Below, piece by piece: positions 8,814 through 51,903 of a stretch of DNA of 64,000 nucleotides. This DNA is from Bryobacteraceae bacterium (GTDB lineage Bacteria; Acidobacteriota; Terriglobia; Bryobacterales; Bryobacteraceae), in assembly GCA_049508735.1 (NCBI GenBank), contig JBELAO010000025.1, forward strand, positions 8 through 64,007, in the 5' to 3' direction. The position numbers and the translations under genes were made by a program. Below the pieces are notes generated by a model. That model saw nothing but the letters and a program-made list of their open reading frames with translations. It did not search any database and was not told where the DNA came from. Numbering within the stretch: the stretch's first letter is position 1; the number at the start of each line of letters is the position of its first letter.

Positions 8814-8995
8814 CGTAGGCTATCTTGGTCCCGTCATCAGAAGTAGTCTACATTATGCGGACATGCGAATCGGCCCTAAAGTCATGGGAGTACGTACCGG
8901 GTAACACGGGTTCTACAACGTTACCTGTTAACCTTGATGCCCAAATATGAGCTGGAGCCCTGCTATCCTCAAAGAAAGTGCAGGAGCGATAAACT

Positions 8996-10510
8996 GTGAT
9001 CGGACACCGTTTAACCCTGGTACTATTGCTCGCGGCCGCTCTCCTCCCCGCGCAAGATCTGAAGGAGTTCGAGAAAAAGGTCACGGAGTTCACCTTAGCC
9101 AATGGTCTACACTTCACCGTCGTGGAGCGTCACGAAGCCCCTGTCGTATCTTTCCACACCCTGGTAAACGCGGGCTCCGCGGACGACCCTTCCGGCGAAA
9201 CCGGCCTCGCCCACATGTTCGAACACATGGCCTTCAAGGGCACCGAGAGCATTGGCACCAACAACTGGCCTGCCGAGAAAAAGGCACTCCAGGATGTGGA
9301 AGACGTTTACGACCGGATGGAAGCCGAGCGCAACAAGGGGCCCAAGGCCGACCAAAGCAAGATCGGTTACCTCGGCATGCAACTCAAACAGGCGATCAAC
9401 GTGGCCCAATCCTACGTGGAGTCGAACGAGTACACGCGCATCATCGAGCAAAACGGCGGCGCCGGTCTGAACGCGGACACTTCCTTCGATTACACGGAGT
9501 ATTTCTATAGCCTCCCTTCCAACCGCATCGAGCTCTGGTTTTTGCTGGAATCGCAGCGCTTTCTGCGCCCGGTATACCGCGAGTTCTACCAGGAACGCGA
9601 CGTGGTGCAGGAGGAAAACCGCATGCGCAACCAGCCCGGTTCGCAGGGCCAGCTTTTGCGCGATTTCGTGGCTACCGCTTTCGCCGCCTTCCCGTACCGG
9701 AATCCGCCCGGCGGCTGGCCCAGCGACGTGGATAACCTGCGGCGCGGCATGGCGCAAGCGTTCTTCGACAAGTATTACGTGCCCGCTAATATCAATCTCG
9801 CCATCGTCGGCGACGTGGATCCGGCGCAGGCCCGGCGCCTGGCCGAGCGCTACTTCGGCCCTCTGCCGGCGCGTCCCCTGCCGCCGCTCGTTCACACCGT
9901 CGAGCCGGCCCAGGATGGTCCCAAGACCGTCGTCGTGGAGTCGCAGAGCCAACCGCTGTTCGTCGCCGGCTTCAAGCGGCCCGGCCAGGACGATGCGGAC
10001 GATCCGGTGTACGAGGTGATCTCGCTCATCCTCTCCGGCGGCCGCACCAGCCTGCTCTACAAGGAACTCGTGCAAGAGAAAAAGATCGCGGTCGAAGTGG
10101 ACGCGCTGGCGACTTACCCATCGTCGCGCTATCCGAACCTGTTCGTCGTCTTCGTGGCGCCCGCGGTGGGGCACACCGTGGAGGAAAACCAAAAGGCGCT
10201 GGAAGGCCTGCTGGCGGGCTTCGCGGCCCGGAAAATCGACGCGGAGACCTTGCAGCGTGTGAAAACCCAGGCTCGCGCGTCGGTGATTCGCCGCCTGGAC
10301 AGCAACTCCGGCCTGGCGTCCTTGCTGACGTCGTACTACGGCAGTTATGGGGACTGGCGGAAGCTGTTCACCCAGCTCGACGACTTGAACAAGGTTACGG
10401 CCGAAGATGTCGAGCGGGTGGCGAGCGGCTGTTTCGTCGCCAAGAACCGCACGGTGGCCTTCACCGTGGCGCCAAGTGCGCTCAGCCGCGGCGGGGAGGG
10501 CCGGCCATGA
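8996..10510 (+). CDS. M16 family (insulinase/pitrilysin-like) zinc peptidase, active subunit
   Basis: HxxEH zinc motif in GLAHMFEHMAFKGT. Signal-like N-terminus. GTG start preceded by AGGAG. Confidence 0.9.
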   Translation: MIGHRLTLVLLLAAALLPAQDLKEFEKKVTEFTLANGLHFTVVERHEAPVVSFHTLVNAGSADDPSGETGLAHMFEHMAFKGTESIGTNNWPAEKKALQDVEDVYDRMEAERNKGPKADQSKIGYLGMQLKQAINVAQSYVESNEYTRIIEQNGGAGLNADTSFDYTEYFYSLPSNRIELWFLLESQRFLRPVYREFYQERDVVQEENRMRNQPGSQGQLLRDFVATAFAAFPYRNPPGGWPSDVDNLRRGMAQAFFDKYYVPANINLAIVGDVDPAQARRLAERYFGPLPARPLPPLVHTVEPAQDGPKTVVVESQSQPLFVAGFKRPGQDDADDPVYEVISLILSGGRTSLLYKELVQEKKIAVEVDALATYPSSRYPNLFVVFVAPAVGHTVEENQKALEGLLAGFAARKIDAETLQRVKTQARASVIRRLDSNSGLASLLTSYYGSYGDWRKLFTQLDDLNKVTAEDVERVASGCFVAKNRTVAFTVAPSALSRGGEGRP

Positions 10511-23035: not shown

Positions 23036-24799
23036 CTACTGGACGTCGCTGACTTTGCCGTTATTGAAAGTCACCTTCATGTCTTTGTAGACATAGATTT
23101 TCTTAGCGCCCAGGTTGACGATCTTCAAAGGAGTTCCCAGCGCCGCGGTAACTTGATCGATGGTCTGCCCGACATCGACGCTAACCGGCTCAGCGGCCGG
23201 CGCGGGAGCGGCATTGGGTCCCGGGCCGCCGCCTGCCGTGTCGGCGGTAGCTTCCTTCTCGGCCTGATCGGCTGCTTGCGATTGCTGATTGATCTCGGCG
23301 GCGACTTCGCTGTCCGGTGGAGGAGGCGGCGCAAGGGCGGCCATGGGGCTCTCGACCGGAGCGGCCTTGGCGGCCGCCGGGGCAGCCGGCAATCCACCTT
23401 GCCCCTGCTTCTTTTGCAGTTCCTGCATGCCCGCATCGATGGTCTCGCGCATGTGGTTCTGCATGTCCTGCAGATCCTGGAGCGCCACGGAAACGACGTC
23501 GCCCTTCGGGCATTCCTTACCGCCCTTGCTGGCCAGTACGGCGAGGTTGGCGGCCTGCGCGTCCGGCGCGACCGAGCCGCGGAGTTGGATGGCGTCGCCT
23601 TCGCTGAGGGCGCACTCGTTGCCCCCGGCGTCGGTTACGTCGAGATCGGTGCCGGCTACGAAGACATGCGCCTTGCCATCGGTGAGCAGGCGCTGAATGC
23701 TGCTGGAGGCGGCGTCCGGCTCGGTGTCCGGTTTGGCGGCGGCGGCCTCGGTGTTCTCGAGGGCAATCTGCTGTTTCACTTCATCGGAGATGAGTTGCTT
23801 CACGTCAGGCGTAAGTGGCGCGGGGTTGGCCATGGCCGCGGCGTTGGCCACATACGCCGCCTGCAGCGACTGCGCGACGAGATAGTCCGTCAGCCAGAAC
23901 GCCGGACCGGCATAGACCGGATAAGGCGTGAAATACGCGCCATAGTATCCGTACCAGGGATTGCCGGCCCAGCCCCAGCCATAAGCAACCGGATTGACCC
24001 ACGGATTGTAGGCCCATCCGTAGAAAGCCGCTCCGTAATAGTAGCTCGGGTAGTACGGGTTCATGTACATGCCATGATAATAGTAGCGTCCATAATAGGC
24101 ATGATAGTAGCGGCCGTCATGATAATACGAGCGCCGGGCATACTCGTGACCGTGATACATATAAGGATGCTGCACATAGCCGCGGCCGCCGCGGCCGACG
24201 AAGACGCGGGAATGATCTCCACGCTCGACCATTACGTGCCGGCTTCCATTGAGACCGTGGTGAACGTCCATGCCGCGCCGGTTGTCATGGAACCCGGCGA
24301 CGTGTCCGTCCGCACGCCTGGTAACGGCGCCATTCCTGGTCTGCATGGTGGTGTGGCCGCGCGGGGCCGGACCGCCATGTCCGCCCGCGGGCCCGCCGTG
24401 GGCCGAGGCGGCGTTGCCGTGTGCGCCAGCCCCGCCGGGCGCGCCGTGCGAAGCGCCGGCCCCTCCAGCGGCGCCGGTGTGACCGGTGGACGTACCTGTT
24501 GCGCCGTGCGTGCCGGCCGTGGAACCGGTGGAGTGTGATGCGCCGCCGGTTGTAGTAGCCGAATGACCGGTGGACGTGGTAGTCGGGCCATGCGATGCCG
24601 TCGACGCGCCGGTGCTGTGGGACGCGCCGGCGCCTCCACTGGCCGGCTTAGCCGCGGCAGCGGGCTTGGCAGCAGCAGGTTTGGCCGCGGCCGGTTTGGC
24701 TTTGTCGGCGCAAAGCGCGGGATAGGCGAACAACAACATCGCCAACGACGCGGTCAGGCATCCGGCGGAAAACGGGGTTCGAACTCCGTGCATACTCAT
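23036..24799 (-). CDS. Secreted low-complexity protein: PAAAK repeats, a His/Gly/Thr-rich tract, a Tyr/Trp/Gly-rich (YxWGxW-like) tract, and a C-terminal BamE/SmpA-like ~50-aa module
   Basis: Signal peptide, then KPAAAKPAAAKPAAAAKP. This is followed by SHSTGASTASHGPTTTSTGHSATTTGG…, then YYHDGRYYHAYYGRYYYHGMYMNPYYPSYYYGAAFYGWAYNPWVNPVAYGWGWAGNPWYGYYGAYF. It ends GQTIDQVTAALGTPLKIVNLGAKKIYVYKDMKVTFNNGKVSDVQ. Confidence 0.8.
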   Translation of the reverse strand: MSMHGVRTPFSAGCLTASLAMLLFAYPALCADKAKPAAAKPAAAKPAAAAKPASGGAGASHSTGASTASHGPTTTSTGHSATTTGGASHSTGSTAGTHGATGTSTGHTGAAGGAGASHGAPGGAGAHGNAASAHGGPAGGHGGPAPRGHTTMQTRNGAVTRRADGHVAGFHDNRRGMDVHHGLNGSRHVMVERGDHSRVFVGRGGRGYVQHPYMYHGHEYARRSYYHDGRYYHAYYGRYYYHGMYMNPYYPSYYYGAAFYGWAYNPWVNPVAYGWGWAGNPWYGYYGAYFTPYPVYAGPAFWLTDYLVAQSLQAAYVANAAAMANPAPLTPDVKQLISDEVKQQIALENTEAAAAKPDTEPDAASSSIQRLLTDGKAHVFVAGTDLDVTDAGGNECALSEGDAIQLRGSVAPDAQAANLAVLASKGGKECPKGDVVSVALQDLQDMQNHMRETIDAGMQELQKKQGQGGLPAAPAAAKAAPVESPMAALAPPPPPDSEVAAEINQQSQAADQAEKEATADTAGGGPGPNAAPAPAAEPVSVDVGQTIDQVTAALGTPLKIVNLGAKKIYVYKDMKVTFNNGKVSDVQ

Positions 24800-24845
24800 T
24801 TGACGATCTCCTCAGTCGGCTCTTTCGAGCCTGCTCCCTTACGGG

Positions 24846-25760
24846 CTACTGCACGTCTGTCACTTTTCCGTTGACGAACGTGACTTTCAAATCCTTGTAA
24901 TAGTAAATATCCTTGCTTCCGACCTTGGCCTTTTTCACGGGCTGGCCCAAAGCCGCTACAACTTGATCGATGGTTTGTCCTTCCGAGACCGACACCGGGT
25001 CGGCCGGCGGCGGAGGCGGAGCTTCAATCGGCGGAGGCGGAGCCTCGACCGGGGCCGGAGCGGCAGGGGCTGCCGCGGGCTGGCTCGGCGCTTCCTGCTG
25101 CCCGCCCTGGGGCGCCGCCTGTCCCTTGTCGCCGCCCTTGTCGTCACCAGCCTTGTCCTTGTCATCGGCGGGGGCAACTTTGATAACTTCGGCGACGGCC
25201 TTCAGGGCTTCTTCGGGCGACGGTGTGATGGCTCCGAACGGAATCAATAGCGAAGTCGCATAGCGCGCGTCGTTAATCGCGTCGGTGAAGAAGCCGAGAA
25301 CGATGCCCGGATCCTTGCCTTCCCTGACTTCGATCTTAGTTACCCAGAACTTCTCTCCGGCTACGAAGGTCCTGCTCGCCGGTGAATCCGGGACGCTGCT
25401 CGCGCCGGGGATCATGCTCGTAAACCTGGAGAACTTTTTCACTTTTTCGTTGGTCCTGCAGGCTGCGCTTTGCGTGACCTTGCCGTCCTTGTAAGTATTC
25501 CGGCACGGGTTGGTGCTGGAGGCCACCAACATCAGCACATTGTCTTTCTGAAGGACCACCACCGAGCCCGCCGTCACAATATCCGACTTGTCAGCGGTCG
25601 TCTTGGTGAGCTGATATTCGCCCTCCAGCTTTTTCTGGATGGCGGCGACTCCCTGTTCGTCGGCGTGGGCCGCCCCAACACACTGGAGTAGGAATACCGT
25701 CGTGCAAAGAGCTGCGTGCGCTCGATAAGAGCGTGCGGTTTTCGAGTTAGTGCCTGGCAT
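24846..25760 (-). CDS. Secreted hypothetical protein sharing the C-terminal ~50-aa module with the downstream gene
   Basis: Start moved to the ATG at 25760 (MPGTNSKTARSYRAHAALCTTVFLLQCVGAAHA), preceded by GGGGAG. The C-terminus is GQTIDQVVAALGQPVKKAKVGSKDIYYYKDLKVTFVNGKVTDVQ. Confidence 0.8.
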   Translation of the reverse strand: MPGTNSKTARSYRAHAALCTTVFLLQCVGAAHADEQGVAAIQKKLEGEYQLTKTTADKSDIVTAGSVVVLQKDNVLMLVASSTNPCRNTYKDGKVTQSAACRTNEKVKKFSRFTSMIPGASSVPDSPASRTFVAGEKFWVTKIEVREGKDPGIVLGFFTDAINDARYATSLLIPFGAITPSPEEALKAVAEVIKVAPADDKDKAGDDKGGDKGQAAPQGGQQEAPSQPAAAPAAPAPVEAPPPPIEAPPPPPADPVSVSEGQTIDQVVAALGQPVKKAKVGSKDIYYYKDLKVTFVNGKVTDVQ

Positions 25761-35401: not shown

Positions 35402-37543
35402 ATGCGAAGAGCGCTTGTCTTATTCTCGATCTGGCTGCTGGCGGTTTCCGCGCAACAGGGTGTTCCGCAAGGCGGCAGCAACTCGACCGGCCTCCCGCGG
35501 GGCACGGTGACGTTCAGCACCACGCGGCAGCTTGTGGTGGAGGACGTAATCGTCAAGTCTCAGAACGGCAAGCCCGTTGACAATTTGAAGGCCAGCGACT
35601 TCGTGGTCACCGAGGATGGCAAGCCGCAACAGATCAGCGTATTCGAGTTTCAGAAGCTGTCCGAGGAGGCGGTGCCGGTTCCGCCGCCCGCTTTACAGAA
35701 GCGGACGGAAGTTGCAGTGGCCGCGGCCGCGCCGGCGGTGAAGCCGCTGACGGCGGTCGAGATCGCGCCGGAAAAGCCGGGCGACCTGAAGTACCGGGAC
35801 AAGCGGCTGATGGTGATGTTCTTCGACATGACCTCGATGCCGATTCAGGACCAGATGCGCGCCCAGGCGGCGGCGCTGAAATTCCTCAACACGCAGATGA
35901 CGGCTTCCGATCTGATGGCGATCATGACGTTTGCGAGCGACATCAAAGTAGTGGAAGACTTCACCGACGACCGCGATCTGCTGACCCAGGACATCAAGAA
36001 ACTGGTGATCGGCGAAGGCCTTGGCCTGGATGAAACGGTTGCCGACGACAGCGCTTCCGATACGGGCGCGGCTTTCCAGCAGGACGATACCGAGTTCAAC
36101 ATTTTCAATACCGACCGCCAGCTTTCGGCGCTGGAATCGGCGGTGAAGATGCTGGCCTCGCTGAACGAGAAGAAGGCGCTGGTATATTTCGCCAGCGGCA
36201 TGACGCGCAACGGGCTGGATAACCAGGCACAGTTACAGGCCACCATCAACGCGGCCATCCGCTCGAACGTGTCGTTTTATCCTATCGACGCTCGCGGCCT
36301 GGTGGCGGCAGCGCCGCTGGGCGACGCCACCAAGGGATCGCCGGGCAGCCAGGCGATGTACTCGGGCAGCTCGGCGCGCGCCGGCGTGAGCAATTTCCAG
36401 GGACAGCAGGAAACGCTCTACACGCTGGCATCCGATACCGGCGGCAAGGCGCTGCTCGATAACAACGACTTATCGATGGGTATCGTGCAGGCGCAAAAAG
36501 ACATTTCGAGTTACTACATCATCGGCTACTATTCGGCCAACGAAGCGCTTGACGGCCGCTTCCGCCGGGTCAAGATTGCGTTGAAAGACAAGGAAACGGC
36601 GGCGCGTGTCGCCAGGCTGGATTACCGACAGGGCTATTATGCGAGCAAGGAATTCGGCAAGCTCAACACGACGGACAAAGAGCGGCAGTTAGCCGAGGCC
36701 TTGATGCTGGGCGATCCGGTAACCGATATTGATATCGCGGTGGAGATCGACTATTTTCGCCTGGCGCACGACCGCTACTTCGTGCCGGTGGTGGCGAAGA
36801 TTCCAGGCAGCGAATTGGAACTGGCGCGCCACGGGGGCGCCGAATCCACGCGCATCGATTTTATCGGCCAGGTGAAAGACTCGGCGGGCAAGATCGTGCA
36901 GAACGTGCGGGATATGGCCGACGTCAAGCTGAAAGGCCAGACTGCTGCCGATCTGGCCAAGCATCCGCTCGAATACGACACCGGTTTCACGCTGGCGCCG
37001 GGTAAGTACAATCTGAAATTCCTGGCGCGCGAGAATGAAACCGGCAAGATGGGAACTTACGAAATCAACTTCGCGATTCCCGATCTTACGGCCGATCAAA
37101 AGCTGCTGCCGATCAGCTCGGTGATCCTCAGCAGCCAGCGGATCGCGCTCGATGCGGCGGTGTTCAGCGCGGAGAAAGACAAGAAGCTGCTGGCCGCCAA
37201 TCCGCTGGTGGAGGGTGGCCAGAAGCTGGTGCCCAGCGTGACGCGCGTCTTCAACAAGAACCAGGAGATGTACATCTACCTGGAAGCGTACGAACCGGCC
37301 GCCAGCGCGACGGAGCCGATCGTCGCCAGCGTGGCGTTCTATCGCGGCAAAACGAAGGCGTTCGAATCGGCGCCGCTCGAAATCAGCCAGGGGCTCAACG
37401 ACAAATCGAAGGCGCTACCGGTGCGCTTCAGCCTGCCGCTGGGCAAACTGCAACCTGGGCGCTACACCTGCCAGGTGAGCGTGCTCAATCCCACCGCGCA
37501 GAAATTCGCCTTCTGGCGCGCGCCGATGGTGCTGGTGCAGTAG
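35402..37543 (+). CDS. VWA domain protein of the Acidobacterial TIGR03436 type
   Basis: N-terminus TFSTTRQLVVEDVIVKSQNGKPVDNLKASDFVVTEDGKPQQISVFEF. VWA MIDAS-like region MVMFFDMTSM…. Starts 4 nt after the receptor gene. Confidence 0.85.
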   Translation: MRRALVLFSIWLLAVSAQQGVPQGGSNSTGLPRGTVTFSTTRQLVVEDVIVKSQNGKPVDNLKASDFVVTEDGKPQQISVFEFQKLSEEAVPVPPPALQKRTEVAVAAAAPAVKPLTAVEIAPEKPGDLKYRDKRLMVMFFDMTSMPIQDQMRAQAAALKFLNTQMTASDLMAIMTFASDIKVVEDFTDDRDLLTQDIKKLVIGEGLGLDETVADDSASDTGAAFQQDDTEFNIFNTDRQLSALESAVKMLASLNEKKALVYFASGMTRNGLDNQAQLQATINAAIRSNVSFYPIDARGLVAAAPLGDATKGSPGSQAMYSGSSARAGVSNFQGQQETLYTLASDTGGKALLDNNDLSMGIVQAQKDISSYYIIGYYSANEALDGRFRRVKIALKDKETAARVARLDYRQGYYASKEFGKLNTTDKERQLAEALMLGDPVTDIDIAVEIDYFRLAHDRYFVPVVAKIPGSELELARHGGAESTRIDFIGQVKDSAGKIVQNVRDMADVKLKGQTAADLAKHPLEYDTGFTLAPGKYNLKFLARENETGKMGTYEINFAIPDLTADQKLLPISSVILSSQRIALDAAVFSAEKDKKLLAANPLVEGGQKLVPSVTRVFNKNQEMYIYLEAYEPAASATEPIVASVAFYRGKTKAFESAPLEISQGLNDKSKALPVRFSLPLGKLQPGRYTCQVSVLNPTAQKFAFWRAPMVLVQ

Positions 37544-42337: not shown

Positions 42338-42374
42338 CAGTTGACTAAGATGCGCGCTAACACCGAAAAGATGC

Positions 42375-42495
42375 GCCGTGGCGCACGCACTCGTCGGTGC
42401 CGCGTCGGCACTCGTGCCGACGCAGGGCGCCGGCGGAAAAAAGAGGTGTCGAGAAGAGTCTCGACACGGCACGCACGAGTGCGTGCGCCACATGG
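42375..42495. repeat. Repeat cluster (family C double hairpin plus an inverted partial copy) in a divergent promoter region
   Basis: gtggcgcacgcactcgt (42378-42394) is the reverse complement of acgagtgcgtgcgccac (42475-42491). There are also hairpins gtcggcactcgtgccgac and gtcgagaagagtctcgac. Confidence 0.8.
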
Positions 42496-42578
42496 GCGGC
42501 CAGGATTTGGTGTTGGCTATATCGTGGCAAAGCTCCCTCCCAGCCGCGCACGCTATCATAAATAGGAAGACCTCCCGC

Positions 42579-45500
42579 ATGGCTGTCAAACCCGATCCAC
42601 AAATGGGCGTCAATAGCTGGCTCGAAGAAGAACTCTACCGGCAGTACCTTCTCGACCGCTCCGCCGTAGACGAAAGCTGGAAAGAAGTATTTGACTCGAG
42701 CGGCGGCGTCGCTGCCGCGCCGCAGCCCGCGCCTGCCAAGCCTTCCGCCTCCGGAGCGCCGTCGAAACCCGCACTCGAGCCGCCCGCCGGCGGCCAGTTG
42801 CAGCCCTTGCGCGGCGCCGCCGGTCGCATCGCCGAAAACATGGCGGCCAGCGTCTCCATCCCTCTCGCTACCTCGCAGCGCACCATCGCCGTCAAGGTGA
42901 TGGATGAAAATCGCCGCATCATCAACCAGCATCGCGCCGTCCTCGGCCTGAGCAGGGTATCGTACACGCACCTGATCGGCTGGGCGGTGATCAAGGCGCT
43001 CGAGGAGTTTCCCGGCCTCAACCAGGCATACGCGGAAAAAGACGGCGCGGCCTACCGCGTGGTGCATCCGCAGATCAATCTCGGCGTAGCGGTGGACGCC
43101 GCCGGCAAGGATGGCGCGCGCAACCTGCTGGTGCCCAACATCAAGAATGCCGGCGCGCTGAACTTCCAGGAATATCTGAGTAGTTTCGATGACCTGGTGG
43201 CCCGCGCCCGCACCGGCAAACTGGTCACCGCGGATTTTCAGTCGACCACCATTTCGCTGACCAACCCAGGCACGGTGGGTACTATGTCCTCCAGCCCGCG
43301 CCTGATGCTGGGCCAGGGCGCCATCATCGCCACCGGCGCCATCGACTATCCGGCCGAATACCACGGCACGGCCGCCGAAACCCGCGCCACACTCGGCATC
43401 AGCAAGGTGATGACCCTCACCTCCACGTACGATCACCGCATCATTCAGGGCGCCGAATCGGGCGCGTTTCTGGGCAGAGTGCAGGCGTTGCTCGATGGCG
43501 CCGACAGCTTCTACGAAGAGGTCTTCGATCATCTGAAGATTCCGCACCAGCCGGTGCACTGGGAAACCGACCGCCGGCCGGGCCTTCCCGGAGCCGCTTC
43601 CACGCGCACCGCCGAAATCGCCAAGGAAGCCGCCATCATGCAGATGATCAACGCCTACCGCGTGCGCGGTCATCTCATCGCCGACCTCGACCCGCTGGGC
43701 CACGAGCCCAGCTATCACGCCGAGCTCGACCCGGAAACATACGGTCTCACCATCTGGGATCTGGACCGCGAATTCCTCACCGGCAGCCTGGGCGAAGCCA
43801 TCGGCGAAGCCGGCCCCAAGCCACTCGCCACGCTGCGCGAGATTCTCGAGACGCTGCGCGAAACCTACTGCGGCAAAATCGGCTGCGAATACATGAACAT
43901 TCAGGTGCCGGAACAGAAGCGCTGGCTGCAGCAGCGCATGGAGCCGGAGAAGAACCACTGGCCGCTCGCTACCGAAACCCGTCAACGCATTCTGCGCAAC
44001 CTGATCGCCGCCGAAGGCTTCGAGCACTTCCTGCACTCCCGCTTCGTCGGCCAGAAACGTTTCGCGCTGGAAGGCGCCGAAACCGCGCTCGCCATCCTGG
44101 AAGAGATTCTGGAGCGATCGAGCGCCGGCAACGTCAGCGAGATCGTCATCGGCATGGCCCATCGCGGCCGGCTGAACCTGCTCGCCAACGTGGTGGGTAA
44201 GGATCTCAAGCAGATCTTCTCCGAGTTCGAAGGAGACATCGATCCTTCGAGCACCCAGGGCTCCGGCGACGTGAAATACCACCTGGGCGCGCACGGCGTG
44301 CGCCACTGCGAAAACGGCCGCGAGATCACGGTTTCGATCGCCCCCAACCCCAGCCATTTGGAAGCCGTCGACCCGGTGGTCGAAGGCATCGTGCGCCCCA
44401 AGCAGGACCACCTCGGCGACACCGCCCGCGAGCGCGTCATCCCGCTGCTGATCCACGGCGACGCAGCTTTCGCCGGTCAGGGCGTGGTGGCCGAGACGCT
44501 CAACCTCTCGCGGCTGGACGGCTATTCCACCGGCGGCACCATTCATCTCATCATCAATAACCAAATCGGCTTCACCACCTTGCCCGATGAATCGCGCTCC
44601 ACGCCTTATTCCACCGACGTCGCGCGCGGCGTGCAGGCGCCCATCTTCCACGTCAACGGCGATAGCCCGCAGGCCGCTGTCCGCGTGGCGCAGATCGCTT
44701 TCGATTACCGGCAGAAGTTCAAGACCGACGTGGTGATCGATATGATCTGCTACCGCCGCCACGGGCACAACGAAGCCGACGATCCCAGTTACACCCAGCC
44801 CATCCTCTACCGCAAGATCAAAGAGCATCCTTCGGTGGCGACGCTCTACGCCGAGCGCCTGGTGCGCGAGGGCGTGGCGACCGCCGAAGAAGTCGCGGCG
44901 ATCCGCCAGCAGGTCAGCCAGCGCCTGGCCGCCGGTTATGACGCCGCGCAGGAGCAGGCCGAGCGCTACGAGTTGCAGGAACTGAGCGCGGTGACTACGG
45001 GCGATATCTCCAGCTTCTGCCCTCGCACCGCCGTCAACCAGCAAGTGCTGGAGCGGGTGATTCGCGGTATCACCAATTTCCCGGACACTTTCCATGTGCA
45101 TCCCAAGCTGCGCGGCTTCCTCGAGAAGCGCCGCAACGCGATCGCCCAGGCCACCCCGCTCGATTGGGCGCTGGCCGAATCGCTCGCCTTCGGCACGCTG
45201 GCTCTCGAGGGCACCGCCGTCCGCCTCAGCGGCCAGGATTCCGGCCGCGGCACTTTCAGCCAGCGCCATCTCGCGTTCTACGATTTCGAAACCGGCAAGC
45301 GCTATATTCCCCTACAGCATATTTCGCCGGATCAGGCCCGTTTCGATGTCTATGACAGCTCCTTGAGCGAATACGCCGTGCTGGGCTTCGAATTCGGCTA
45401 CAGCGTGGCCGATCCGCTGACACTGGTGATTTGGGAAGCGCAGTTCGGCGACTTCGCCAACGGCGCGCAGATCATGATCGACCAGTTCATCTCCTGCGCC

Positions 45501-46253
45501 GAATCCAAGTGGGGACAGCCGAGCGGCTTAGTAATGTTACTGCCGCACGGCTACGAAGGGCAGGGCCCTGAACATTCGAGCGCCCGCATCGAGCGCTACT
45601 TAGTTCTTTGCGCCGAAAACAACATGCAGGTTTGTAACTGCACCACGCCGGCGCAGTATTTCCACTTACTCCGCCGCCAGATGTATGGCGGCTCCGACCG
45701 CCGCGGTGTGCGCAAGCCGCTGGTCATCTTCACCCCCAAGAGCCTGCTGCGCCATCCGCGCGCCGTTTCCACCGTTCACGATTTCGCGACCGGCGGCTTC
45801 ATCGAGATTCTGGATGACTCCGCCGCCGATCCGCAGCGGATTTCGCGCGTAGTCTTCTGCTCGGGCAAAATCTATTACGACTTACTGCTAGCCCGCGAGG
45901 AGCGCAAAGCCGATCACGTCGCCCTGGTCCGCGTCGAGCAGCTTTATCCGTTTGAATCCAGCCAGGCCGCCGACATCCTAATTAAATACGCGCCCACCGC
46001 CGAGATCGTCTGGGCGCAGGAAGAGCCCAAAAACATGGGTCCCTGGCGCTTCATGCACGAACAGATGCAGCCGCTCGCCGACATCACCCGCCGCGAGATC
46101 CGCTACATAGGCCGCGCCGAATCCGCCAGCCCCGCCACCGGCTCCGGCAAGCGCCATCAACAAGAGCAGCACGAAATCATCGACGACGCGCTAACGCAAG
46201 GGCCGCTGTCGCAAACTAGGCGGGTGAGGCTGGTGGCGAAGCGGAAGAAGTAG
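42579..46253 (+). CDS. sucA: Kgd-type 2-oxoglutarate dehydrogenase E1 (decarboxylase) with an N-terminal E2-like acyltransferase domain
   Basis: Start at the ATG at 42579 (MAVKPDPQMGVNSWLEEELYRQY). The acyltransferase catalytic region is …LTSTYDHRIIQGAESGAF…. The E1 ThDP region includes …GMAHRGRLNLLANVVGK…HGDAAFAGQGVV…. The antisense ORF 42357..45269 was rejected. Confidence 0.9.
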   Translation: MAVKPDPQMGVNSWLEEELYRQYLLDRSAVDESWKEVFDSSGGVAAAPQPAPAKPSASGAPSKPALEPPAGGQLQPLRGAAGRIAENMAASVSIPLATSQRTIAVKVMDENRRIINQHRAVLGLSRVSYTHLIGWAVIKALEEFPGLNQAYAEKDGAAYRVVHPQINLGVAVDAAGKDGARNLLVPNIKNAGALNFQEYLSSFDDLVARARTGKLVTADFQSTTISLTNPGTVGTMSSSPRLMLGQGAIIATGAIDYPAEYHGTAAETRATLGISKVMTLTSTYDHRIIQGAESGAFLGRVQALLDGADSFYEEVFDHLKIPHQPVHWETDRRPGLPGAASTRTAEIAKEAAIMQMINAYRVRGHLIADLDPLGHEPSYHAELDPETYGLTIWDLDREFLTGSLGEAIGEAGPKPLATLREILETLRETYCGKIGCEYMNIQVPEQKRWLQQRMEPEKNHWPLATETRQRILRNLIAAEGFEHFLHSRFVGQKRFALEGAETALAILEEILERSSAGNVSEIVIGMAHRGRLNLLANVVGKDLKQIFSEFEGDIDPSSTQGSGDVKYHLGAHGVRHCENGREITVSIAPNPSHLEAVDPVVEGIVRPKQDHLGDTARERVIPLLIHGDAAFAGQGVVAETLNLSRLDGYSTGGTIHLIINNQIGFTTLPDESRSTPYSTDVARGVQAPIFHVNGDSPQAAVRVAQIAFDYRQKFKTDVVIDMICYRRHGHNEADDPSYTQPILYRKIKEHPSVATLYAERLVREGVATAEEVAAIRQQVSQRLAAGYDAAQEQAERYELQELSAVTTGDISSFCPRTAVNQQVLERVIRGITNFPDTFHVHPKLRGFLEKRRNAIAQATPLDWALAESLAFGTLALEGTAVRLSGQDSGRGTFSQRHLAFYDFETGKRYIPLQHISPDQARFDVYDSSLSEYAVLGFEFGYSVADPLTLVIWEAQFGDFANGAQIMIDQFISCAESKWGQPSGLVMLLPHGYEGQGPEHSSARIERYLVLCAENNMQVCNCTTPAQYFHLLRRQMYGGSDRRGVRKPLVIFTPKSLLRHPRAVSTVHDFATGGFIEILDDSAADPQRISRVVFCSGKIYYDLLLAREERKADHVALVRVEQLYPFESSQAADILIKYAPTAEIVWAQEEPKNMGPWRFMHEQMQPLADITRREIRYIGRAESASPATGSGKRHQQEQHEIIDDALTQGPLSQTRRVRLVAKRKK

Positions 46254-46816
46254 GCAGGATGGAGAGGTTTGGGTCACGCGTGGATCGAGCTGCCATCTGG
46301 CATTCTCAATCCATCGTTTTGTTCGCAAGCTGATCTGTCTTCCGGACCCGTTTCCGAAGTCCCACGGGCGGAGCCACGGGTGCGTTGAGTGGTTTCGGCA
46401 TTAGGCATAAGCGCTCTGGCCGGTAAGCTCAATTTCGTTGAAGGAGGGTAGGTGAATCAGATGAGCCAGTGACTATGAAAAATACCACTTCAGTGCAACA
46501 TGTGAGGCTTCCGACTCGGCAGTGCTTCACTGTCTGCGCGCTCTATGCCAGTGGGCGGAAAGATGGAAGAAGCCCCAAATTGGATGGGGTGGAACCGGCA
46601 AGAGCGACTGGGAAGCATCAGGCCACAGGTTCACCCTGCGCTTCACAGACCCCGATTATCGCCGACATTTCCTGGACAAGGCTGACGAGTTATTGAAGGG
46701 CAGATGGTGTCTCGTCGCGACGAATGACGACGATCCGGCGATGCCTCAGCGGGCGCCCCGGTGAGGCGGGCCGGAGCCGTTCACGTTGGAGAGGACCGAC
46801 CCAGGAGCGACGTCGC

Positions 46817-47581
46817 TCACGCCACCCGCTCACGCTCGAAAAACTGCATCCCGTTCTCCCGGAAGTCATCCAGCGACGTGAACTGTTTGTCGGCGGCGCT
46901 GGTGATGCGGGTGCGGTCCTTTCTGGTGATCCCGCTTTCGAAATCCTGGTGCACCATCACGCTCTTGAACGGCAGGCGGCGCCTCTGGAACTCCAGGCAG
47001 GAAATGGTCGTCAGGCGGGCCTTGTCGCTGTCTTTGACCCCAAAAAGGTATAGCGGCCGTGGGCCGGCGTCGAACTGAAAATCCACCTCATACTCGTCGT
47101 GATCCGGGATGGGCAGCACGTGAGCGCGCGGGTTGTATTCACCCAGTCGATCTTCGATGAACTCCGTCAGTTGCTCGTAAAACAGGCTCTGGATCACTTC
47201 ACGCTTGAAGTACTGCATGCTGGAGATCTTGGCCACCGTCTGCGCAAACTGGAGAATGGCCGGGTATAGCCGTTCCGGCTCCGCTTCGATGTAAAGCCGC
47301 CCGTCCTGCTCCTGGATACGGTTCTCGGCCAGGATGCGATTGAAAATCCGCTGCTTGTTTTCGGTGTCCAGGTCGTAGCTGTACGTCAACCGCATGAGCG
47401 TCATGCCGTGATCGCTGATCCGGACTTTGTTCGAGCCGTTCCGCGATTCGTCGATGAAGATGTCCACCATGTCGCCGTCTTCGTGAAACAGCGGCGCCAA
47501 CACTTGGACCACACCCGGACGGCGCTCCCGGAATGCCACGTGGCCATTGAACTGCTGTTTCAGCAACTCTAGTCCGGTCAT
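46817..47581 (-). CDS. DUF1828/DUF1829-type two-domain protein, function unknown
   Basis: 254-aa ORF with a clean protein-like sequence. I recognise the N-terminal (…VQVLAPLFHEDGDMVDIFIDE…ISDHGMTLMRL) and C-terminal (…YEVDFQFDAGPRPLYLFGVKDSDKARLTTISCLEF…) halves as the DUF1828 + DUF1829 architecture, from memory. Its ATG overlaps the upstream stop (ATGA). The locus has lower GC. Confidence 0.7.
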   Translation of the reverse strand: MTGLELLKQQFNGHVAFRERRPGVVQVLAPLFHEDGDMVDIFIDESRNGSNKVRISDHGMTLMRLTYSYDLDTENKQRIFNRILAENRIQEQDGRLYIEAEPERLYPAILQFAQTVAKISSMQYFKREVIQSLFYEQLTEFIEDRLGEYNPRAHVLPIPDHDEYEVDFQFDAGPRPLYLFGVKDSDKARLTTISCLEFQRRRLPFKSVMVHQDFESGITRKDRTRITSAADKQFTSLDDFRENGMQFFERERVA

Positions 47582-48098
47582 GGGGCTGGTTCCTGTTCGT
47601 CGAAGGGGAGTTTTTCTTGTGCAAGATCGGGGAAGTGAGCGGCTGCGTCGGTAATGTTGGCTGTCCTCAAGAAATACTGGAGCGCCTCTTCATATGACGC
47701 AAAATCCCGGTTCACGGCTGCGGACTTCTCCGGCCGCTGCCCGCTTCCATCATCTCCGCACTGGCGCGATGCACGTGAAAGTCCCAATGCGGGTCGCTCG
47801 GATCGAAGGAGTCATTGAAGCCGCCGTGCGGTCCGTTGCAGCGTAACAGCAGGATCTCGCCAGTGCCGTCCTTGGGGAGGAATGCTAGGCCGATGGAAAA
47901 GTTCTCGGGCAAGTCCTCGCTGCGCCGCATGAAGGCCCGGAATTCGAGAGCGCTGTCACCGGACCTCAACCGCATGTCATTGCGGAGGTGCCCGCGATCC
48001 AGCCTCATTTCGCGTTTCGGCGGTTCCGTGATCGTCTTGGCGCAGCCGATGAGGCCATCGATTTCGTCCTGAGTGTACCGTCGTGGCTCAATTGCCAT
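47578..48098 (-). pseudogene. Unknown protein gene with a frame break, or two small overlapping genes (128 aa plus ~50-69 aa)
   Basis: ORF 47712..48098 (…LLLRCNGPHGGFNDSFDPSDPHWDFHVHRASAEMMEAG…) and ORF 47578..47787 (…VNRDFASYEEALQYFLRTANITDAAAHFPDLAQEKLPFDEQEPAP) overlap by 76 nt in frames offset by one. The second ORF ends in an ATGA overlap with the DUF1828/1829 gene. Confidence 0.5.
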
Positions 48099-48265
48099 GG
48101 CTAGATCGATCTGCCGATATCGAGTAGCATCGGCGCTCCCTTTGTCGTTAGCATAGCATCCGAATCAATGACCGCTTGCCGGTCTGCCTTTCCTGGCGCG
48201 TAAGAATCGCGCCGTCAGCTTTGCCCGTTCCCCATTAAAGAGGTATAGGTGTTATTTTAGGGGCC

Positions 48266-48748
48266 ATGGAAGCATTCATCGACCAGGTGATTGCGAGCCG
48301 CAGTGGCCGTCCCGGGGCGCTGCTGGCCATACTGGAAGCCGTCCAGAACCGTCATCCTCAGAAGTATCTCCCGGAGGCCAGCCTTCGCTACATCGCCACG
48401 GCGATGAAGATCCCGCCGGCGCGGATCTACAGCGTGGCGACCTTCTATGCGCTGTTCAACCTGAAGCCGCAAGGCGAGCACACCATCTGCATCTGCCGCG
48501 GAACGGCGTGCCACACGCGGGGCTCGCGCAGCCTGCTGGAGAGCGTCCGGCTGGATCTGGGCATTAGCGGCGAAGAGGACGAATCGCCCACTTCGCCGGA
48601 CGGAAAATTCACCATTCGCACGGTGGCATGCTTCGGGCAGTGCGCACTGGCGCCGGTGGTGGAGTTGGACCATCGCATCTGCGGCCACGTGAATGAGAGA
48701 CAGCTCTCGCGCGAAGTGGCGGCCATCGCCGAGGGTCACGACCGATGA
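48266..48748 (+). CDS. hoxE: HoxE / NuoE-like [2Fe-2S] diaphorase subunit
   Basis: Four-Cys thioredoxin-like ferredoxin pattern: CRGTACHTRG … CFGQCALAP. Confidence 0.85.
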   Translation: MEAFIDQVIASRSGRPGALLAILEAVQNRHPQKYLPEASLRYIATAMKIPPARIYSVATFYALFNLKPQGEHTICICRGTACHTRGSRSLLESVRLDLGISGEEDESPTSPDGKFTIRTVACFGQCALAPVVELDHRICGHVNERQLSREVAAIAEGHDR

Positions 48749-51700
48749 CGCGAATTCTGGATATCAACGGCTTTAGCGACGTGCGCGAGCGCGGCCTGGC
48801 GAAACTGGTGCCGGCGCGCGCCCGCATCGCGGTGGGCATGGGCACCTGCGGGCGCGGCAACGGCGCCGAGGGCCTCTACCATGCCTTCGCCGAGCAGATC
48901 GACCGCGGCGGCGCGGATGTGTCGCTCTCGAGCGTGGGCTGCCTGGGGCCCTGCTCGGAGGAGCCGCTGGTCTCCGTGCGCCTGCCGGGGCGGCCGCTGG
49001 TGATCCTGCACCGCGTGCAGGCGAGCGATGTGTCGCGCATCCTGCACGATGTGGCGACCTACAACGTGACGCCGGATCTGACGTACTGCAAGATCGAGGA
49101 ATGGGACCACATCACCTCGCACATCAAGTACGGATCCGCCTGGCCGGAGCTGCGCAATTGGGACGAGGTGCCCTTCTTCCGCGGGCAGAAGAAAATCGTC
49201 ACCCGCAACTGCGGCTTCATCGATCCGGACGATCTTGAAGAGTACATGGCGGTAGGCGGCTATCAGGCCTTATATAAGGTACTCATCGAAGGGCACCCGG
49301 AGGCGGTGATCGAGCAGGTCAAGGCGTCGAAACTGCGCGGGCGCGGCGGCGCGGGATATCTCACCGGAAACAAGTGGGAGTTCCTGTCCAAGAACAAGGC
49401 CAGCCAGAAATACATCATCTGCAACGCGGACGAAGGCGATCCGGGCGCCTACATGAACCGCAACGAAATCGAAAGCGACCCGCATTCGTTGATCGAGGGC
49501 ATGATCATCGGCGCCTACGTGATGGGCGCTACCGAAGGCATCGTATACGTGCGCGCCGAATACCCGCTGGCGGTTCACCGGCTGGAACGCGCCATCGAGC
49601 AGGCGCGCGAGTACGGCATGCTGGGCGAGAACATCCTGGGGCGCGGGTTCCAGTTCGATATCTCGCTGGTGGAAGGCGCGGGAGCCTTTGTCTGCGGTGA
49701 GGAGACGGCCCTCATTGCGTCGCTCGAAGGCATGGCCGGGCGGCCGCGGCCGCGTCCCCCATTTCCGGCGCAAAAGGGGTTGTGGGGCAGGCCGACCAGC
49801 ATCAACAACGTCGAGACCTGGTACAACATCGCGCCCATCGTCACCAAGGGTGCGGCATGGTTCACCGAAACCGGCAGCACGAAAAGCGCGGGGACCAAGG
49901 TTTTCTCGCTGGTGGGCAAGATCACCAACTCAGGGCTGGTGGAATTGCCGCTGGGGACGCCGCTGAAGACGCTGGTGTACGACATCGGCGAGGGCGGCAT
50001 TGCCGGGAGGGCGATCAAGGCCGTGCAGACCGGCGGCCCGTCGGGCGGCTGCATCCCGCATGAGATGTTCGACACCGCGGTGGATTACGAAAGCCTGGCG
50101 CAGATCGGCTCCATCATGGGGTCCGGCGGCATGGTGGTGATGGATGAAGACAACTGCATGGTGGACGTGGCGCGGTTCTTCATCGAGTTCACGCATTCCG
50201 AATCCTGCGGCAAATGCGTACCGTGCCGCGTGGGCCTGGATAAAGCGCTGAAGACCCTGGACGCGTTCACCCGCGGGGTCGCCACGCAAGACCAGTTCGA
50301 GGTGCTCGAAGACCTGGGACGGATGATTCGCGACTGCTCCTTGTGCGGCCTGGGCCAGTCGGCGCCCAATCCGGTGCTGACCGCGCTTCGCCACTTCCGC
50401 CATGAATTCGAAGACCACATTGTGGCGCGGCGCTGCCGGGCGGGCGTCTGCGAAGAGCTGGTGCTTTCGCCCTGCGAGAACAGTTGCCCGCTCCACATGA
50501 ACATCCCGCGCTTCCTGCAACTGTATAAGGAAGGCAAGCTGGATGAGGCCTACGAATCGGTGGTGCTCGATAATCCCCTGCCCGCGTCCACCGGCCGGGT
50601 ATGCCAGCACCCCTGCGACAATCGGTGCCGGCGCCAGACGCTGGATGAAGCGGTGAACATGCGCGACGTTCACCGGCTGATTGCCGACTCGGTGTTCGCC
50701 TCCGACCGGTACGAAGAGCTGAATGCCCGCGTGGTGGCGCGGCGATTCGCGCCCAGCGGGCGCAAGATCGCGGTGGCGGGCGCGGGGCCGGCCGGCCTGA
50801 CCGCCGCATACTACCTGGCGATGCTGGGTCACGAAGTCACGGTGTTCGAGAGCAAAGCCGAGGCGGGCGGCATGCTGCGGTATGTGCTGCCGGAGTACCG
50901 GCTGCCGAAAGAGGTATTGCGAAAAGAGATCCAGCTCATTGAGCGGATGGGAGTCAAATTCGTATTCGATACGCGGGTCGGATTCGACCTGCCGCTGCAC
51001 GAACTCGACGACCGGTTCGACGCGGTCTTCCTATCCTTCGGAACCTGGAAGGAATCGTGGGTGTATCTGGCGGGCACCGAGCTGAAGGGCGTGTGGCCGG
51101 CGCTGCCGTTCCTGGAAGCGGTGGCGCGCCAGGAGGAGATCTCGCTCGGCCGCAAAGTCGCCATTATCGGCGGAGGCAATGCCGCCATCGATTCGGCGCG
51201 CACGGTTCTGCGCATGGGAGCCGAGGCGCTGATCGTGTATCGCCGCGAACGCAAAGACATGCCCGCCATCGAAGAGGAGACGCTGGCAGCCGAGGATGAG
51301 GGCGCCAAGATCCTGTTCCTGGCGGCGCCGCACCGCATCATCGGAACGCCCGATGGGCGCGTGAAGGCGCTCGAAGTGGTGAAGACCAAGCTGGGCGAGT
51401 ACGATTCCTCGGGCCGCCGCAAGCCGGTTCCCACCGGCGAGATTCAGCGCTACGAGTGCGACAGCGTAATCCTGGCGGTGGGGGAAGCCGTGGACATGGA
51501 CCTGCTGCAAGCCTCCGGCCTGAAAATCAGCGAGCAGAAAACCATCGAGATCGACCGCTACTCGATGGAGACCAGCCGGCCGCGGTTCTTCGCCGGCGGC
51601 GACGTGGTCAGCGGCGCTTCGAACCTCTCCAACGCGATGGGTTACGGAAAGAAGGCGGCGCGCAACATCGACGAGCGGTTGATGGGCGTGCGCCGTTGGG

Positions 51701-51903
51701 CGAAGCTGTTTCCGGAGTTCGAGTACGCGCAGGAGGCGCCTTTGCTGCCGAGCGAGAGCCGCCGCCACCATCCGGGCCATCTGCCGGCGCACGAACGGGT
51801 GAAGAGCGTCGAGGAAGTGGTGATCGGCCTGACGCTGGAGGAGGCTCACGAGGAAGCGTGCCGGTGCCTGCGCTGTGACGTGAAAGCGGTGGGTGGGAGA
51901 TAA
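48745..51903 (+). CDS. hoxF: HoxF / NuoF-like FMN-NAD(H) diaphorase subunit fused to a GltD/NfnB-like FAD-NAD(P)H oxidoreductase module
   Basis: NuoF part: [33 protein letters not shown] and [13 protein letters not shown]. GltD-like part: [12 protein letters not shown]…[11 protein letters not shown], then [46 protein letters not shown] and [13 protein letters not shown] overlap with hoxE. Confidence 0.85.

Follow-up and report, generated by a model that had tools for sequence, protein, structure and literature searches.

Between sucA and hoxE, in a 64,000 nucleotide stretch of the genome of a Bryobacteraceae bacterium (the window), lie two small genes, here called A and B, that form a candidate toxin-antitoxin-like or defence module. 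Both are on the minus strand whilst sucA (ending at 46253) and hoxE (starting at 48266) are on the plus strand, and these boundaries and orientations, reported in an initial annotation of the same DNA, were borne out. The features of the locus, in window coordinates, are as follows.

47578 to 48098, minus strand: gene A, DUF6978-like, 173 amino acids if repaired, interrupted by a frameshift
47712 to 48098, minus strand: A-N, the remaining 128 amino acid open reading frame of A, with the predicted beta-sheet core and all of the family-invariant residues (K21, N88, G89, H108 and H110)
About 47739 to 47740, minus strand: site of a 1-nucleotide deletion in gene A, located by comparison with relatives
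47578 to 47715, minus strand: A-C, the 45-codon rest of gene A in the -1 frame, with a GTG start, listed as a 45 amino acid gene in the JGI gene calls
46817 to 47581, minus strand: gene B, intact, 254 amino acids, with an N-terminal DUF1828 domain, a helical linker and a C-terminal alpha/beta domain (DUF1829-like, with a possible restriction-endonuclease-like fold judging from weak Foldseek matches)
48099 to 48211, minus strand: conserved upstream block, a putative promoter or 5' leader of the pair, which accompanies the pair in relatives
46254 to 46816, no strand: variable spacer between B and sucA, 563 nucleotides, unique to the window lineage, with no convincing gene

The two genes meet at the ATGA at 47578-47581, which the initial annotation had seen and which is the normal junction of the A stop and B start; the LLLRCNGPHGG...HWDFHVH motif that it had pointed out is carried by the 128 amino acid open reading frame. 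That annotation had described two or three small, tightly coupled genes, which was right as to the coupling but not as to the count, since the 128 amino acid protein and the acidic segment of about 50 amino acids that it treated as separate units are halves of a single 173 amino acid gene. A merged query, in which the halves were joined across the -1 shift, recovered 210 homologs, mostly of 173 amino acids, with 100% coverage and identities of up to 90%, and the aligned relatives run through ...EMIEAGQRPEKSA.VNRDFASYEE in a single frame. On the minus strand, GAAGCGGGCAGCGG in the window corresponds to GAAGCGGGCCAGCGG in its closest genome relative, which amounts to a 1-nucleotide deletion at about 47739/47740. 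Given these single-frame homologs and the deletion, the locus therefore holds two genes, A broken and B intact, rather than two or three.

The exact 254 amino acid B protein was found on at least 22 metagenome contigs, and six of these, drawn from different samples and put together by different assemblers (ENA ERZ27250198, ERZ27249998 and ERZ27249965; JGI 3300041432, 3300018046 and 3300042090) are 100% identical to window positions 46100-48400, deletion included, with the same sucA and hox neighbours. The deletion is therefore a fixed allele of a peat Bryobacteraceae population and not a one-off assembly error. Pairwise ratios of nonsynonymous to synonymous substitution rates (dN/dS) were 0.08-0.11 between the repaired window A and its relatives and 0.11-0.19 among the intact copies themselves, and since the repaired gene gives values no higher than the intact copies do, the lesion appears to be recent. 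In both the window and one relative (L149), the new TGA stop of the shifted frame overlaps the GTG codon of Val131 (GTGA, 47712-47715 in the window), leaving a 45-codon open reading frame that ends at the ATGA overlap with B. Frameshifts in codons 119-126 have arisen independently at least four times, in the window (47712-47740), L149 (= P0071; about 364-440), L035 (about 240-300) and P0067, and these codons encode the eight-residue linker (EAG-x-RPEK) between the core of A and its C-terminal helices. The clustering could reflect either a GC-rich quasi-repeat acting as a hot spot for slippage or fission of the gene that is tolerated and accompanied by reinitiation. Programmed ribosomal frameshifting was considered and rejected, there being no X XXY YYZ slippery motif at the site and the relatives being in frame. 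Most likely, the module in this genome has been disabled by the recent 1-nucleotide deletion, which leaves B intact and still constrained.

Family membership was assessed using profile comparisons. Residues 30-119 of B match Pfam DUF1828 (PF08861; 68.2 bits, E value 7.7e-19, model positions 2-91 of 91) against a gathering cut-off of 22 bits, and among its 1296 homologs the precomputed Pfam annotation available for 120 names PF08861 only. Pfam DUF1829 (PF08862) gave no match to B at an E value of 1 or below, so that of the DUF1828 plus DUF1829 architecture initially ascribed to the 254 amino acid protein the first domain was confirmed and the second was not recognised by its model. B also matches the PADLOC family PDC-M24B (PDLC04539, 2.1e-17; PDLC04540, 2.5e-10; model positions 18-155 of 255). 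Profile searches with Pfam and PADLOC, the check proposed in the initial annotation, thus returned DUF1828 and PDC-M24B for B and no model above threshold for A; a search of NCBIfam gave no match.

The family of A was reached through a phage. The A-family profile aligns with the 172 amino acid A of Pseudomonas phage 5399 over 138 columns (hhalign probability 98.7%, E value 2.8e-16), and this phage protein scores 46.2 bits against Pfam DUF6978 (PF22398, gathering cut-off 29.6 bits) and 1.2e-8 against PDC-M24A. The B protein of phage 5399 (258 amino acids, DUF1828 and PDC-M24B) overlaps A and is 33% identical to the window B. In the pair of Lactobacillus prophage Lj965 (Ljo_0292/Ljo_0291), the 152 amino acid A matches DUF6978 (8e-33) and PDC-M24A (4e-21), and the 261 amino acid B, which overlaps it, matches DUF1828 (2e-29), DUF1829 (2e-23) and PDC-M24B (1e-70). 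Direct hhalign comparison of the A family with the Lj965 DUF6978 protein was weak (probability 3%), and the link to DUF6978 therefore runs through phage 5399. For B, hhalign against the Lj965 protein aligned only residues 13-170 of B (the N-terminal domain, the helical linker and the first strands of the C-terminal domain), and in a full-length alignment A188 and F205 are invariant with an identity of only 20%. Judged from these sequence relationships, gene A is distantly related to Pfam DUF6978 and the window pair forms a divergent branch, from the acidobacterial Bryobacteraceae, of the DUF6978 plus DUF1828/DUF1829 module that PADLOC lists as candidate PDC-M24; as a member of PDC-M24 it is a catalogued candidate and not a new kind of system. 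The DUF1829 hit in the DefensePredictor paper has another architecture (DUF3037 plus DUF1829, with HipA). An exhaustive profile search (E value of 1e-3 or below) placed the A family at 1136 clusters at 50% identity, spread over Acidobacteriota, Proteobacteria, Firmicutes, Verrucomicrobiota and phages, and the top 150 clusters are mostly proteins of about 155-175 amino acids with no extra domains, some being shorter or N-terminally extended.

The AlphaFold2 model of an intact A homolog (mean predicted local distance difference test score, pLDDT, 88; predicted template modelling score, pTM, 0.83) comprises an N-terminal helix, a seven-stranded sheet and C-terminal helices. Across 53 diverse members of the family K21, N88, G89, H108 and H110 are invariant and R58, E65, R86 and H91 nearly so, and this conserved set, with its Lys, Asn-Gly and His-x-His cluster, has the appearance of a metal-binding or active site. 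Foldseek comparison of A with BFVD gave a single match, an uncharacterised siphovirus protein, and searches of PDB sequences with single sequences and with profiles gave nothing credible. The model of B (pLDDT 87, pTM 0.57) has two domains, the alpha/beta domain spanning residues 150-254, and its best Foldseek matches, all weak (E values 0.014-0.6; TM scores 0.2-0.34 for the two-domain model), include SfsA, BstEII, BbvCI, HincII, T7 endonuclease I and DdmD. The catalytic residues of a PD-(D/E)xK nuclease are not in place in the C-terminal domain of B: the (D/E)xK position reads G181-V-K183, and K183 varies between K, R, S, N and L across the family, with D167 mostly kept. The family-invariant residues of B (P30, D37, D57 and G59) all fall within the DUF1828 domain. 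Structure prediction followed by Foldseek, as suggested in the initial annotation, gave models of an A homolog and of B but no strong match in the PDB. Both proteins are acidic and soluble, without membrane segments.

The two genes occur together almost without fail. B directly follows A in 80 of the 80 A-seeded loci with room downstream, A is present in about 85% of the B-seeded loci, and in most relatives the end of A abuts or overlaps the start of B. After de-duplication at 98.5% nucleotide identity, 147 lineages could be sorted by the state of the pair, with the following counts.

Both genes intact: 90 lineages
A broken, B intact: 17 lineages
A absent, B intact: 8 lineages
B broken, A intact: about 1 lineage
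Both broken: 1 lineage
Ambiguous or cut by a contig end: about 30 lineages

With 17 of 19 lesions in A and target sizes of 519 and 762 nucleotides, the bias towards A is significant (binomial p = 1.4e-5). The lesions of A are independent and of several kinds, including frameshifts at different bases, 5' truncations and TAG codons arising separately from GAG, AAG and TAC. In P0068 (contig of 123,966 nucleotides; partner B = P0126), an in-frame deletion of about 33 codons joins GGYN directly to AVNRDF, so that the His cluster of A is gone and the frame into B is kept. Intact copies of either gene show purifying selection, with dN/dS of 0.08-0.18 for A and 0.04-0.07 for B. The loss asymmetry, with an intact A almost never found without B, therefore fits a toxin-like A that is tolerated only with B, and on the simplest reading A is costly or toxic and kept only with B, which is retained after A is lost. 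One locus without A (L037) has, immediately before its full-length B in the upstream direction, an incomplete second copy of that gene (8824-9288; residues 99-253).

Across many phyla the location of the pair varies from genome to genome. In one relative (L012), it ends an hsdR-hsdM-(hsdS-like)-A-B array with AbiE, PIN, RepA and integrase genes nearby, and in another (L007) the order is SNF2 helicase, N6_N4 methylase, A and B, followed at some distance by a Res endonuclease. ResIII proteins and a DUF499 ATPase accompanied by a DUF1156 methylase also recur as neighbours, the restriction-modification operons in which relatives are often embedded being of type I, type III-like and DUF499/DUF1156 kinds, and restriction-modification-like neighbours were present at 24 or more of the 85 loci. 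B genes that lack A adjoin BrxL (BREX; L024), Res, HD, DUF2283 and type I genes. PADLOC models matched by neighbouring genes include PARIS, Gabija, Septu, AbiL, Old, DISARM, MADS, Hma, Lamassu, AbiE and Cas6e. In Pseudomonas phages the pair lies downstream of cI, directly so and on the same strand in phage 5399 (L104, 2251-4699), and in Lj965 (L105, 1675-6339) it lies between repressor/metalloprotease genes and superinfection-exclusion (sie)/integrase genes; judged from their gene order, both sites are probably lysogen-expressed positions typical of exclusion genes. Searches of 72,556 PLSDB plasmids with A and B by tblastn gave no match. In one relative (L008) the pair stands alone, as in the window.

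The low GC content of the locus, on which the initial annotation had remarked, was confirmed: 46254-48265 has 58.3% GC against 62.8% for the window, placing it in the 1st percentile of 2-kb windows. This is because of the 730 nucleotides of non-coding DNA among its 2012 nucleotides together with the second codon position, GC at third codon positions (GC3) being 0.80 in B and 0.76 in A compared with 0.81 in sucA and 0.80 in hoxE. Elsewhere in the window, 2-kb stretches at about 24500-25400, 36400-36600 and 18200 have a GC content as low or lower, down to 57.0%. Two related Bryobacteraceae metagenome-assembled genomes (MAGs), L015 (SPRUCE 663) and L016 (SPRUCE 349), also have the pair beside sucA. 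The window segment 48211 to 46814 (the pair with about 110 nucleotides upstream) is 91.6% identical at the nucleotide level to L015 and 89.8% to L016, the corresponding values for sucA being 91.0% and 89.5%; the pair and sucA have thus diverged to a like degree, and inheritance of the pair in this clade was therefore vertical. Synteny with seven relatives is lost at about 48200-48211, these relatives sharing another upstream sequence, and the hox operon adjoins the pair only in the window lineage. In the comparison of sucA-hoxE junctions, proposed initially as a way to see whether the island was absent from relatives, the pair is present beside sucA, which speaks against an island, whilst the hox side and the spacer are variable. 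At the site between B and sucA, L015 and L112 carry 1041 nucleotides with a gene for a 308 amino acid CAP12/Pycsar-type TIR protein (PF10137, 3e-39; L015 10854-11780, L112 4040-4963), a relic of the L015 gene being sought in the window spacer 46254-46816 and found absent, and the sucA-proximal site marks a small variable defence spot in Bryobacteraceae.

No tRNA or tmRNA was found in a scan of the window, and a repeat search gave only chance-level pairs, none of them at the synteny breaks, in keeping with the absence of a tRNA or clear flanking repeats reported initially. The one resemblance offered there as a possible trace of insertion, between the 12-mers at 46283-46294 and 48104-48115 (11 of 12 positions), is at chance level and lies off the synteny breaks at 46814 and about 48211. 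The locus shows none of the signs by which a recently acquired island is recognised, whether unusual codon composition, repeats or mobility genes, or absence from close relatives. An Rfam scan of 45800-48600 at an E value of 1 or below had no match, a scan for promoter and terminator consensus sequences gave nothing above shuffled controls, with no sigma-70 promoter in 48099-48211, and the lone terminator-like hairpin on the minus strand falls within B. The open reading frame at 46522-46764, flagged as doubtful in the initial annotation, is probably not a gene: its GC3 is 0.67, it has no family match and the spacer has no homolog in relatives.

Amongst the neighbouring genes, sucA (42579-46253, plus strand) encodes a 2-oxoacid_dh domain (E2 acyltransferase, PF00198) before the E1 domains, according to the Pfam list for the identical L001 gene, and is a Kgd/OdhA-type fused 2-oxoglutarate dehydrogenase. 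A 970 amino acid open reading frame antisense to it (42357-45269, minus strand) is the usual spurious frame of high-GC DNA and not a gene. The hoxF-like gene (48745-51903, plus strand; 1052 amino acids) joins an NADH-binding Complex1_51K/NADH_4Fe-4S part to Fer4_20 and Pyr_redox_2 domains (GltD-like), and beyond the hydrogenase genes lies a sigma-54 two-component pair.

Taken together, we consider it somewhat more probable than an even chance that the pair is a toxin-antitoxin-like defence or abortive-infection module, a divergent PDC-M24 branch whose copy in the window has likely been disabled by the frameshift in A; the toxicity of A, its neutralisation by B and the anti-phage role are what we infer. 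Here A would be the harmful, probably enzymatic, component and B, as neutraliser and/or sensor, the partner that the cell must keep for as long as A is active. Expression may be constitutive, driven by the short block upstream of the pair, and in prophages may come from the lysogeny region. The suggestion in the initial annotation that a compact, translationally coupled cassette of uncharacterised proteins would be of toxin-antitoxin, abortive-infection or other defence type is supported by the PDC-M24B match, the contexts of the homologs and the near-constant co-occurrence of the two genes, and two small, adjacent and translationally coupled genes are the arrangement of type II-like toxin-antitoxin systems.

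Several observations weigh against this interpretation. The PDC-M24A models did not match the window A fragments or seven intact homologs at an E value of 1 or below, and scores against Pfam DUF6978 stayed below the cut-off (13.3 bits for the 128 amino acid fragment and 12.8-24.9 bits for intact homologs, some over the full model length). PMC11811056 presents the PDC-x systems as candidates that are unpublished, and a literature search on the DUF names, Pfam and InterPro accessions and PDC-M24 found no functional study of the family. Foldseek of A against the PDB gave no match (best E value 0.38), and no similarity of A to a known toxin or enzyme was detectable. When PADLOC matches near the pair and far from it were compared, defence families appeared on both sides, genes 6-10 kb away included, which yields no controlled enrichment figure. 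Some of the A lesions are in long-read MAGs and could be sequencing errors. B would also be an unusual antitoxin, being large and more slowly evolving than A.

One rival concerns the lesion itself. The deletion could have split A rather than killed it, with termination and reinitiation giving A-N, A-C and B as three coupled working products, which is the three-gene layout of the initial annotation; the GTGA and ATGA overlaps are both present, gene callers list the 45 amino acid gene, all of the invariant residues fall in A-N, the independent frameshifts cluster in the linker and the repaired A shows no relaxed constraint. We think this rather unlikely, however, as about 200 homologs are single 173 amino acid proteins, and other lineages lose A by nonsense codons, 5' deletions or deletion of the His cluster, so that loss of A is evidently tolerated anyway; moreover, the linker DNA is a slippage-prone GC-rich quasi-repeat and a lesion as recent as this seems to be would not yet have left a measurable mark on constraint. 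A bolder combination, in which A would be a His-dependent toxic enzyme of new fold held in check by B, the pair a widespread abortive-infection system of restriction-modification operons and prophage immunity regions, and the window allele a natural fission of the toxin at its inter-domain linker, still functional through stop-start reinitiation, is in our view unlikely.

The roles of the two proteins could also be reversed, B being the effector, with a nuclease-like DUF1829 domain controlled by DUF1828, and A a sensor or activator whose loss merely silences the system, B surviving because it would also work alone or together with restriction or BREX neighbours. PD-(D/E)xK nucleases are indeed among the best Foldseek matches of B, B is the more conserved partner, and A-less B genes adjoin BrxL, Res and type I genes; but those matches are weak, the Gly-Val-Lys at the (D/E)xK position carries a Lys that is not conserved, the invariant residues of B sit in the DUF1828 domain and the near-absence of intact A without B is left unexplained, and we regard the reversal as rather doubtful. 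The loss asymmetry and tight coupling would fit equally well a selfish toxin-antitoxin (addiction) module that does nothing against phages and persists on mobile elements and islands by post-segregational killing, and the pair does occur in prophages and beside RepA and integrase genes. Against such a module, which appears quite unlikely, stand the lack of any homolog in the plasmids searched and the frequent position of the pair inside restriction operons and, in a prophage immunity region, next to sie. As to origin, the initial annotation had framed the locus as a recently acquired low-GC island between sucA and hox, for which its GC content, its orientation opposite to both neighbours and the variable location of the family across phyla could be cited. 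The GC3 values are those of the flanking genes, however, no integrase, tRNA or repeat is present, the hox neighbourhood is lineage-specific, and a recent event is already contradicted by the equal divergence of the pair and sucA in L015 and L016; we hold this origin to be very improbable.

The pair can be set beside characterised and catalogued systems. It resembles PDC-M24 (e.g. Ljo_0292/Ljo_0291 of Lj965) in having the same two-gene order on one strand, adjacent with overlapping stop and start, in the sizes of the proteins (about 150-173 and 254-261 amino acids), in the PDC-M24B and DUF1828 matches of B and in the link of A via phage 5399, and differs in that the acidobacterial A falls below the PDC-M24A and DUF6978 thresholds, the C-terminal domain of B is not recognised as DUF1829 and the window A is frameshifted. 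The rexAB genes of lambda are exclusion genes of a prophage lysogeny module, and the phage 5399 and Lj965 pairs occupy similar lysogeny-module positions; there is, however, no sequence or structural similarity, A and B lack membrane segments, and in the window the pair lies on the chromosome outside any prophage. AbiE (AbiEi/AbiEii) and similar pairs share the coupled two-gene operon, a large two-domain partner and a defence-island setting (AbiE being adjacent to the pair in L012), and the loss asymmetry fits a toxin with its neutraliser, but there is no homology, the putative toxin is upstream here and no nucleotidyltransferase or helix-turn-helix domain was detected in A or B. In PrrC-EcoprrI, an abortive-infection gene is embedded in a type I restriction-modification operon, much as the pair lies inside or at the end of hsdR-hsdM-hsdS and SNF2-methyltransferase-Res operons in many relatives; in contrast, the association of the pair with restriction genes is optional, since it also stands alone and in prophages, and it has no anticodon-nuclease domain.

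The window itself is modest in what it holds, an ameliorated, vertically inherited and recently disabled copy. If our interpretation of the family is right, PDC-M24-type pairs would be a real and large defence or toxin-antitoxin family, with an effector that would have no structural relative in the PDB, and the pattern of loss, in which A is never kept without B and has been killed repeatedly, points to a cheap, concrete experiment and to the residues to mutate.

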